A DNA stretch of 64,000 nucleotides from Escherichia coli. GTDB taxonomy: Bacteria; Pseudomonadota; Gammaproteobacteria; Enterobacterales; Enterobacteriaceae. Within the stretch, counting starts at the first letter, position 1. Each line of letters begins with the position of its first letter. The stretch lies in assembly GCF_003334405.1 (NCBI RefSeq), contig NZ_QOWM01000001.1. The stretch is one strand, 5' to 3'. The notes below the pieces were generated by a model, which searched no databases, was not told the origin of the DNA, and was given only the letters and a program-made list of their open reading frames with translations. A program made the position numbers and the translations under genes. Positions 18,502 through 18,993 of the stretch are shown one piece after another.

Positions 18502-18977
18502 TCAAAGAGTGGGCTACCGTCGTCTCCTGGCAAAACGGGCAGGCGCTGGTCAGTTGTGATGTTAAAGCTTCATGCAGCAGCTGCGCTTCACGCGCCGGTT
18601 GCGGTAGCCGCGTGTTAAATAAACTTGGCCCGCAAACCACGCATACCATTGTCGTACCCTGTGATGAGCCGTTAGTGCCGGGGCAAAAAGTGGAATTGGG
18701 GATCGCCGAAGGCAGCCTGCTTAGCTCCGCATTACTGGTTTATATGTCGCCGCTGGTGGGATTATTCCTTATCGCTTCGCTATTTCAGCTACTCTTTGCT
18801 TCTGACGTCGCAGCATTATGTGGTGCGATCCTCGGTGGTATTGGCGGGTTCCTGATTGCGCGCGGCTACTCGCGTAAGTTTGCTGCCCGGGCAGAATGGC
18901 AACCGATCATCTTAAGCGTGGCATTGCCGCCTGGCCTTGTGCGATTTGAAACATCTTCGGAAGACGCGAGCCAGTGA
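18498..18977 (+). CDS. rseC: sigmaE regulatory protein RseC
   Basis: 159 aa; ATGA overlap with rseB; Cys cluster and two transmembrane segments. Confidence 0.93.
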   Translation: MIKEWATVVSWQNGQALVSCDVKASCSSCASRAGCGSRVLNKLGPQTTHTIVVPCDEPLVPGQKVELGIAEGSLLSSALLVYMSPLVGLFLIASLFQLLFASDVAALCGAILGGIGGFLIARGYSRKFAARAEWQPIILSVALPPGLVRFETSSEDASQ

Positions 18978-18993
18978 TTTCACTGGCTTTGTT
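18970..18993 (+). terminator. hairpin plus T-run overlapping the rseC stop codon
   Basis: Stem gccagtg/cactggc, loop attt, then TTTGTT; the rseC TGA lies within the stem/loop. Confidence 0.5.

Follow-up and report, generated by a model that had tools for sequence, protein, structure and literature searches.

A terminator hairpin built over the rseC stop codon of Escherichia coli and a probable contribution of the ribosome to its read-through

The influence of a translating ribosome on a terminator close to a stop codon has been described in E. coli by Li et al. 2016 (PMC4824070). By their account, the ribosome protects about 10 nt of mRNA 3' of its A site, and a terminator can fold only if 10–15 nt of RNA are left free between this site and the stem. 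With a stop codon placed 5 bp upstream, the efficiency of the tR2 terminator fell from approximately 90% to below 10%, and this loss was abolished without translation (PMC4824070). A review makes the related point that a coupled ribosome would mask any terminator lying a few nucleotides past a stop codon, and summarises the argument of Johnson et al. 2020 from the distance between stop codon and terminator (PMC7858274). According to TERMITe, most intrinsic termination sites of E. coli lie 25–75 nt past the stop codon. Searches of the literature returned no paper treating rseC, lepA and a terminator together, and nothing relevant on rseC, lepB and the rpoE operon.

The end of rseC lies at the short edge of the TERMITe range, with its termination site 19–20 nt past the stop codon. 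Its stem begins 7 nt ahead of the stop codon, with the 3' arm ending 10–12 nt after it, which places the stem within the mRNA covered by a ribosome at the rseC stop, the geometry of a ribosome-occluded terminator. The reading that we consider probable is that a leaky intrinsic terminator ends the rpoE-rseABC operon and that the ribosome at the end of rseC probably adds to the leak.

The hairpin at the end of rseC

The window analysed here is a 64-kb stretch of E. coli DNA carrying the gene order rpoE, rseA, rseB, rseC, lepA, lepB (NCBIfam equivalog models and K-12 annotation). Window positions 18900–19200 are 100% identical to K-12 MG1655, and on this identity rests the conversion of coordinates: position x of the window equals MG1655 2726299 − x, minus strand. 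The 401-nt segment at the end of rseC is found as one copy in each of 5426 complete E. coli genomes, and a 61-nt segment containing the hairpin is identical in 5010 of these 5426. The features of the rseC end are the following.

18498–18977, plus strand: rseC coding sequence, 159 aa (NCBIfam NF008115 RseC, 277.6 bits against a cutoff of 184; K-12 b2570)
18975–18977, plus strand: rseC stop codon TGA (sequence, end of the open reading frame)
18968–18989, plus strand: terminator hairpin (folding, terminator scan and covariation)
18988–18995, plus strand: U-rich tract UUUGUUGC (sequence and terminator scan)
19175–20974, plus strand: lepA (EF4) coding sequence, the target of read-through (TIGR01393, 1001 bits; K-12 b2569)

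The spacer between rseC and lepA is 197 nt long in E. coli. At the other end of the gene, the start codon of rseC shares bases with the stop codon of rseB (ATGA, window 18498–18501); the overlap implies translational coupling, which would affect the distance between ribosome and polymerase at the end of rseC.

Positions 18968–18995 read GAGCCAGUG-AUUU-CACUGGCUU, followed by UGUUGC. The 5' arm (18968–18976, GAGCCAGUG) runs from the third base of codon −3 through the codons for Ser and Gln to the UG of the stop codon, the loop (18977–18980) is AUUU, and the 3' arm (18981–18989) is CACUGGCUU. The core gccagtg-attt-cactggc (18970–18987) and its TTTGTT tail (18988–18993), as given in an earlier sequence-only reading of this stretch, are exact, and the TGA of rseC lies inside the hairpin as that reading had it, with T18975 and G18976 closing the 5' arm and A18977 forming the first base of the loop. 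The stem comprises 9 bp, five of which are G-C pairs, around a loop of 4 nt; the outer A-U and G.U pairs lengthen the 7-bp core stem to this size, and the first two U of the U tract are able to pair with G18968 and A18969. RNA folding gives −14.0 kcal/mol for the hairpin alone and −11.1 kcal/mol for the core stem. In a 51-nt context the fold has a z-score of −3.5, with 1 of 200 shuffled sequences folding as well. Weak terminator-like matches arise often by chance in the interval 16000–21500, where the terminator scan found 10 against 5.9 ± 2.9 expected; the rseC stem, with 9 pairs, is the longest among the 10 sites listed there.

Both sequence hallmarks of an intrinsic terminator are present at the end of rseC, a G+C-rich stem-loop and a directly adjoining U-rich tract. 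The tract UUUGUUGC has 5 U in 8 positions, is interrupted and is of moderate quality, which fits a partial efficiency of the terminator. The same tract, together with a core stem of only −11.1 kcal/mol, could account for the leak with no part played by the ribosome, as would be expected of a plain weak terminator leaking solely through its imperfect U tract and moderate hairpin; we regard such a terminator as possible, though doubtful. The pairing probability of the stem is 0.9–1.0 with every length of upstream RNA from 37 to 197 nt, and a competing antiterminator fold was ruled out on these values. Since there is no competing fold, any tuning of the terminator must come from factors acting in trans, of which the ribosome is the obvious one.

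Transcript ends, read-through and the lepA promoter

Published transcript data cover the end of rseC and the start of lepA, where three further features are placed.

18990–19000, plus strand: RNA 3' terminus with its peak at 18996 (TRS Supplementary Data 2–4, PMC10687069)
19078–19090, plus strand: lepA promoter, with −10 element TAGAAT (19078–19083), discriminator GCGGCG and start at 19090 by SMRT-Cappable-seq
18991–19088, plus strand: long imperfect hairpin of 98 nt (fold of −35.9 kcal/mol, z = −4.4)

The TRS data, obtained by RNAtag-seq and Term-seq, contain a terminus at MG1655 2707303(−) (range 2707299–2707309) that is classed as the primary end of rseC, and the entry gives a 20-nt 3' UTR and draws the same hairpin (PMC10687069). 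The corresponding window position, 18996, is 7–9 nt past the stem and 19–20 nt past the rseC stop codon, which is to say that in vivo 3' ends occur shortly after the stem, as at an intrinsic terminator. The ratio R = L/(L+D) reported for each terminus equals 1 minus local read-through; being computed from read starts around the site, it does not give a calibrated efficiency. It amounts to 0.54–0.70 at the rseC end compared with 0.90–0.95 at the lepB terminator and 0.99 at grcA (PMC10687069), indicating a comparatively leaky site. Full-length transcripts resolved by SMRT-Cappable-seq include rpoE-rseABC, rseABC and rseBC, a read-through form rseB-rseC-lepA is listed as well, and a separate lepA-lepB unit starts at 2707209(−), window position 19090 (PMC6131387). 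The terminator-like behaviour proposed in the sequence-only reading is thereby supported, by the 3' end at 18996 and by transcripts ending after rseC. That reading would have been abandoned for want of a 3' end at about 18993, and the published end lies at 18996; the read-through into lepA that it envisaged does occur, the rseB-rseC-lepA transcript being documented.

Not all data sets show the end prominently. It is missing from the curated list of Term-seq ends in Adams et al. 2021, which has several ends inside rpoE and rseA and none between 2704184 and 2709165. The TERMITe supplements contain no rseC entry. This absence from one Term-seq catalogue, together with the fact that RNAtag-seq and Term-seq capture steady-state ends and not termination events, would suit an account in which the 3' end at 18996 is a processing product, with polymerases either entering lepA or being stopped at another place, such as by Rho within the untranslated spacer. 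We consider this very improbable, because the hairpin, the U tract and an end 7–9 nt past the stem make up canonical intrinsic-terminator geometry. The accompanying proposal that 3' exonucleases trim the RNA back to a hairpin acting mainly as a stabiliser of rseC mRNA is just as improbable, as T-rich tails adjoin the hairpin in other genera too and would be needless for a mere block to exonucleases.

Two other sets of ends in the neighbourhood are described here in their own right. Published 3' ends lie about 100 nt into rseB (window ~17602–17642; MG1655 2708657–2708660, minus strand), with TRS R values of 0.53–0.92 and a SMRT-Cappable-seq end at 2708660. They follow a hairpin, AACGCCUCGG...CCGGGGCGUU, in the part of rseB that encodes the signal peptide, and suggest an internal partial stop or a processing site yielding an rseA-only transcript. 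The lepB terminator (window ~21975–22017) begins 11 nt after the lepB stop codon and has a 15–16-bp stem of approximately −26 kcal/mol, much stronger than the rseC terminator; its 3' end is at MG1655 2704282, and a further published 3' end, at 2704184, is in the rnc leader.

The lepA-lepB transcripts catalogued are accounted for by the lepA promoter, which is itself conserved in most of the genera compared. The motif TAGAATG[CT]GG[CT]G was found in 66 of the 81 sequences scanned and in 65 of the 80 related loci; nothing was found by the motif search in any of the 15 Enterobacter-type loci. In every locus where it is displayed, the −10 element with its discriminator is exactly TAGAATGCGGCG, and a conserved block containing GAGCATTTCCYCGC is seen upstream of the −10 element. 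G+C-rich discriminators are typical of promoters under growth-rate or stringent control, and such a discriminator at lepA would fit a ribosome-biogenesis factor. The spacer fold additionally contains a small hairpin, GCCUGG-UUAA-CCGGGC, at 19137–19152, inside the 85-nt lepA 5' UTR.

The long imperfect hairpin at 18991–19088 pairs the sequence following the terminator (GUUGCAUUUUGCAU) with the lepA −10 region (GUGUAGAAUGCGGC). As the lepA transcript starts at 19090, this hairpin would be exclusive to read-through RNA. Significant pairing is limited to Escherichia and to the Citrobacter loci L008, L010 and L017, with z-scores near 0 in most genera, and the hairpin was rejected as a conserved processing site because its pairing is lineage-specific. 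A role such as an RNase III site or insulation is possible.

The stem across Enterobacteriaceae

For comparison, 80 species-representative loci were retrieved via RseC, with the comparison confined to Enterobacteriaceae and the RseC relatives among the matches listed showing at least 73% identity. The stop codon lies within a terminator-like hairpin (−12.4 kcal/mol or lower, with a T-rich tail) in 39 of the 80 species loci, which belong to Escherichia, Klebsiella, Raoultella, Kluyvera, Yokenella, Enterobacter, Leclercia, Silvania and some Citrobacter. The stem alignment contains 44 sequences (39 distinct) that were picked for having the hairpin, and its figures describe the hairpin-bearing lineages only. 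Among the 39 distinct sequences, 94.9% of the stem cells are paired, compared with 32–56% when the 3' partner column is slid. Double-sided changes occur in four of the nine stem pairs, and the observed covariation score was reached by no shuffle. Codon −2 varies among AGC, GGC/GGT and GCC (for Ser, Gly and Ala) and codon −1 between CAG and CGG (for Gln and Arg), in each case with the 3' arm altered to match, which shows that the RNA stem is kept while the C-terminal residues of RseC vary. This comparative pairing is the strongest evidence against a chance hairpin. The structure, conservation, 3' end and read-through transcripts of the rseC terminator are established; the conserved placing of the stop codon in the stem is a new descriptive detail of a site whose 3' end is already in public catalogues.

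The alignment also bears on the strand that folds. An Rfam model of an antisense RNA matches across the locus.

18462–19293, minus strand: AsrC homologous region (Rfam RF02746, full length, 507 bits against a gathering score of 111)

AsrC is a cis-antisense RNA of rseC described in Salmonella Typhi, reaching from inside lepA to the end of rseB (PMC4585123). An AsrC-like RNA in the window would start inside lepA and then cross the terminator and all of rseC in antisense. It would thus share the locus, the opposite strand and the crossing of the terminator region with AsrC, which differs in having been described in Salmonella, where the rseC terminator sits past the stop codon. Based on this minus-strand match, the palindrome could be thought to serve the opposite strand or the DNA, either as part of the structure of an antisense RNA resembling AsrC or as an inverted repeat bound by a protein, an idea to which we give hardly any credence. 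The stem cells include 39 G.U against 6 A.C, an excess indicating that the folding strand is the rseC mRNA (plus strand) and that pairing is maintained in plus-strand RNA only; an antisense or DNA-level function of the palindrome was rejected on this count. Moreover, the minus strand has no T tract, and the AsrC match is dominated by conserved rseC sequence and may simply reflect the conservation of that gene. No AsrC start site near MG1655 2706980–2707039 is among the entries listed in the E. coli SMRT-Cappable-seq tables.

Other lineages lack the overlap. Salmonella has a different hairpin, starting about 7 nt past its TAA. In the Citrobacter freundii, koseri and amalonaticus groups, palindromes past the rseC stop codon replace the terminator that overlaps it.

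L006, L009, L011–L013, L015, L018, L021, L022, L040, L043 and L047, directly 3' of the rseC stop codon: Citrobacter palindrome loci

The spacer in these loci is 264–282 nt, approximately 70–85 nt longer than the 197 nt of E. coli, and the palindromes (e.g. GCCGGATGGCGGCTTCGCCTTATCCGGCCTAC) are, in our judgement, similar to REP elements. In loci of the C. freundii group (e.g. L011–L013, L015 and L018) the alignment of RseC to the E. coli protein ends at residue 152, and the protein has a different C-terminal end (...QQ). Kosakonia shows no clear terminator and a short spacer, and Cedecea and one Enterobacter carry GGCCGG-TAA...-CCGGCC but lack a T tract. A further stem (GCGGATAG/CTATCCG) occurs in several Buttiauxella, where the stop codon is enclosed in a large loop and the tail is weak. 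Given its absence from Salmonella, several Citrobacter species and Kosakonia, the overlap is widespread but not obligatory, and hence dispensable.

These comparisons have been weighed for two further accounts of the overlap. One is that a stop codon inside the hairpin was selected to pass transcription from rpoE promoters (sigma-E and other) on to lepA-lepB, making the site a dedicated translation-sensing attenuator. In line with such selection, 39 of the 80 species loci have the stop codon within a terminator-like hairpin whose stem shows compensatory changes, the different Buttiauxella stem also encloses the stop codon, and a terminator that has moved, as in Salmonella, lies no more than about 7 nt away from it. 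Nevertheless, an inherited hairpin position explains the conservation without selection for sensitivity to the ribosome, and we consider the proposal of an attenuator unlikely. The other takes the overlap to be incidental to a compact gene end and without measurable effect, which we hold to be a possible but not a favoured explanation. The loss of the overlap in Salmonella and several Citrobacter species is consistent with it, and so is the spacing of the locus: between the rseC stop region and the conserved lepA promoter there are 44–175 nt in the loci compared, leaving little room away from the stop codon. With so short a spacer, a terminator near the stop codon does not by itself argue strongly that sensitivity to the ribosome was selected.

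The ribosome at the rseC stop codon and known counterparts

In the mechanism that we favour, the rpoE-rseA-rseB-rseC operon would be ended by an intrinsic (Rho-independent) terminator that is only partial in action. The nascent RNA would fold into the 9-bp hairpin followed by the interrupted U tract, part of the polymerases would be released at 18996, and the remaining polymerases would cross the 197-nt spacer into lepA-lepB, which also have their own promoter, with its start at 19090. Because the 5' arm consists of the last two rseC codons and the UG of the stop, the hairpin would be blocked by a terminating ribosome, and it is presumably unable to fold while a ribosome covers roughly the last 6–8 codons of rseC or the stop codon. 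If the first ribosome is close behind the polymerase, termination would be suppressed, whereas a lag of about 40 nt or more, a figure that follows from an RNA 3' end at about 18996, would let the hairpin form. Leakiness is thus probably raised by the ribosome and would depend on how tightly translation of rseC is coupled to its transcription; we infer this contribution from the geometry of the site and from the analogy with tR2.

The sequence-only reading had ribosomes finishing rseC melt the structure transiently and in this way possibly tune read-through. The melting itself stands, as the geometry requires a ribosome that decodes the stop codon to unwind the hairpin. Its proposed consequence needs a correction: termination is decided once, co-transcriptionally, and for this reason only the first ribosome matters for read-through. 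What is decisive for read-through is the position of this first ribosome while the polymerase sits on the U tract. Later ribosomes that open the hairpin after the transcript is complete could change no more than the stability of its 3' end.

Short distances between stop codon and stem are found elsewhere in the window. At five other gene ends with terminator-like hairpins the stem begins at +4, +6, +11, +20 and +58 relative to the stop codon, compared with −10 at rseC, the only negative distance in a sample that is small, descriptive and based on heuristic ORF calls. That other gene ends have hairpins only 4, 6 and 11 nt past the stop codon fits a weak terminator whose overlap with the stop codon is incidental; the ribosome might then have no effect if, for example, rseC is weakly translated or its first ribosome is usually behind the polymerase. 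Against this stands the strong translation-dependent repression measured in E. coli at short distances between stop codon and terminator by Li et al. 2016 (PMC4824070), and with a negative distance at rseC some effect of the ribosome is to be expected whenever coupling occurs.

A stronger version of this dependence would make read-through into lepA-lepB proportional to how closely translation of rseC follows its transcription, which we think improbable. Similarly, there is little to recommend a valve that opens only under tight coupling and that was apparently re-created in Buttiauxella with a different stem. The documented read-through transcript agrees with either proposal. However, lepA has its own strong conserved promoter, and neither a sensing element nor an alternative RNA fold was found. 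Nor were any data found on a response of lepA or lepB to sigma-E, and Rhodius et al. mention neither gene in their main text. No evidence points to the overlap of stop codon and hairpin as a dedicated regulatory device.

The gain in understanding is small, because the general mechanism is already known and the 3' end already catalogued. If translation of rseC does set the leak, the site would represent native, conserved, ribosome-gated termination at the end of a full-length E. coli gene. The sigma-E operon would then be transcriptionally connected to lepA-lepB, and the locus would offer a natural test case for the reach of coupling in shaping operon boundaries. Were a valve present, envelope-stress signalling would be tied to the supply of signal peptidase I and of a ribosome-biogenesis factor (EF4), and with a true attenuator lepAB output would respond to envelope stress and to translation status.

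Compared with known systems, the rseC terminator is an ordinary, partly known feature, for which tuning by the ribosome is plausible, though unproven. It resembles partial intergenic terminators in being a leaky site, here between rpoE-rseABC and lepA-lepB, with both terminated and read-through transcripts, and differs from them in that there is no evidence of the read-through fraction mattering for lepAB levels. With pyrBI attenuation it shares a terminator that overlaps an open reading frame, the blocking of its folding by a close ribosome and the dispensability of an antiterminator (PMC4824070). In pyrBI, coupling is set by a leader peptide and UTP-sensitive pausing (PMC4824070), whereas at rseC the open reading frame is that of a full-length gene closing an operon, with no pause or sensing signal known and with downstream genes that have their own promoter. 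The lack of a sensing signal, the separate lepA promoter and the lack of an alternative fold together set it apart from leader or pyrBI-type attenuators. The terminators of Li et al. 2016 differ in that phage tR2 was placed in a reporter with the stop codon at least 5 bp upstream of the stem (PMC4824070); the rseC terminator is native and chromosomal, has its stop codon inside the stem, and is suggested to depend on translation by analogy only. With these terminators it has in common an E. coli hairpin within reach of the ribosome finishing the upstream gene, and an expected partial read-through that depends on the coupling of transcription and translation (PMC4824070).
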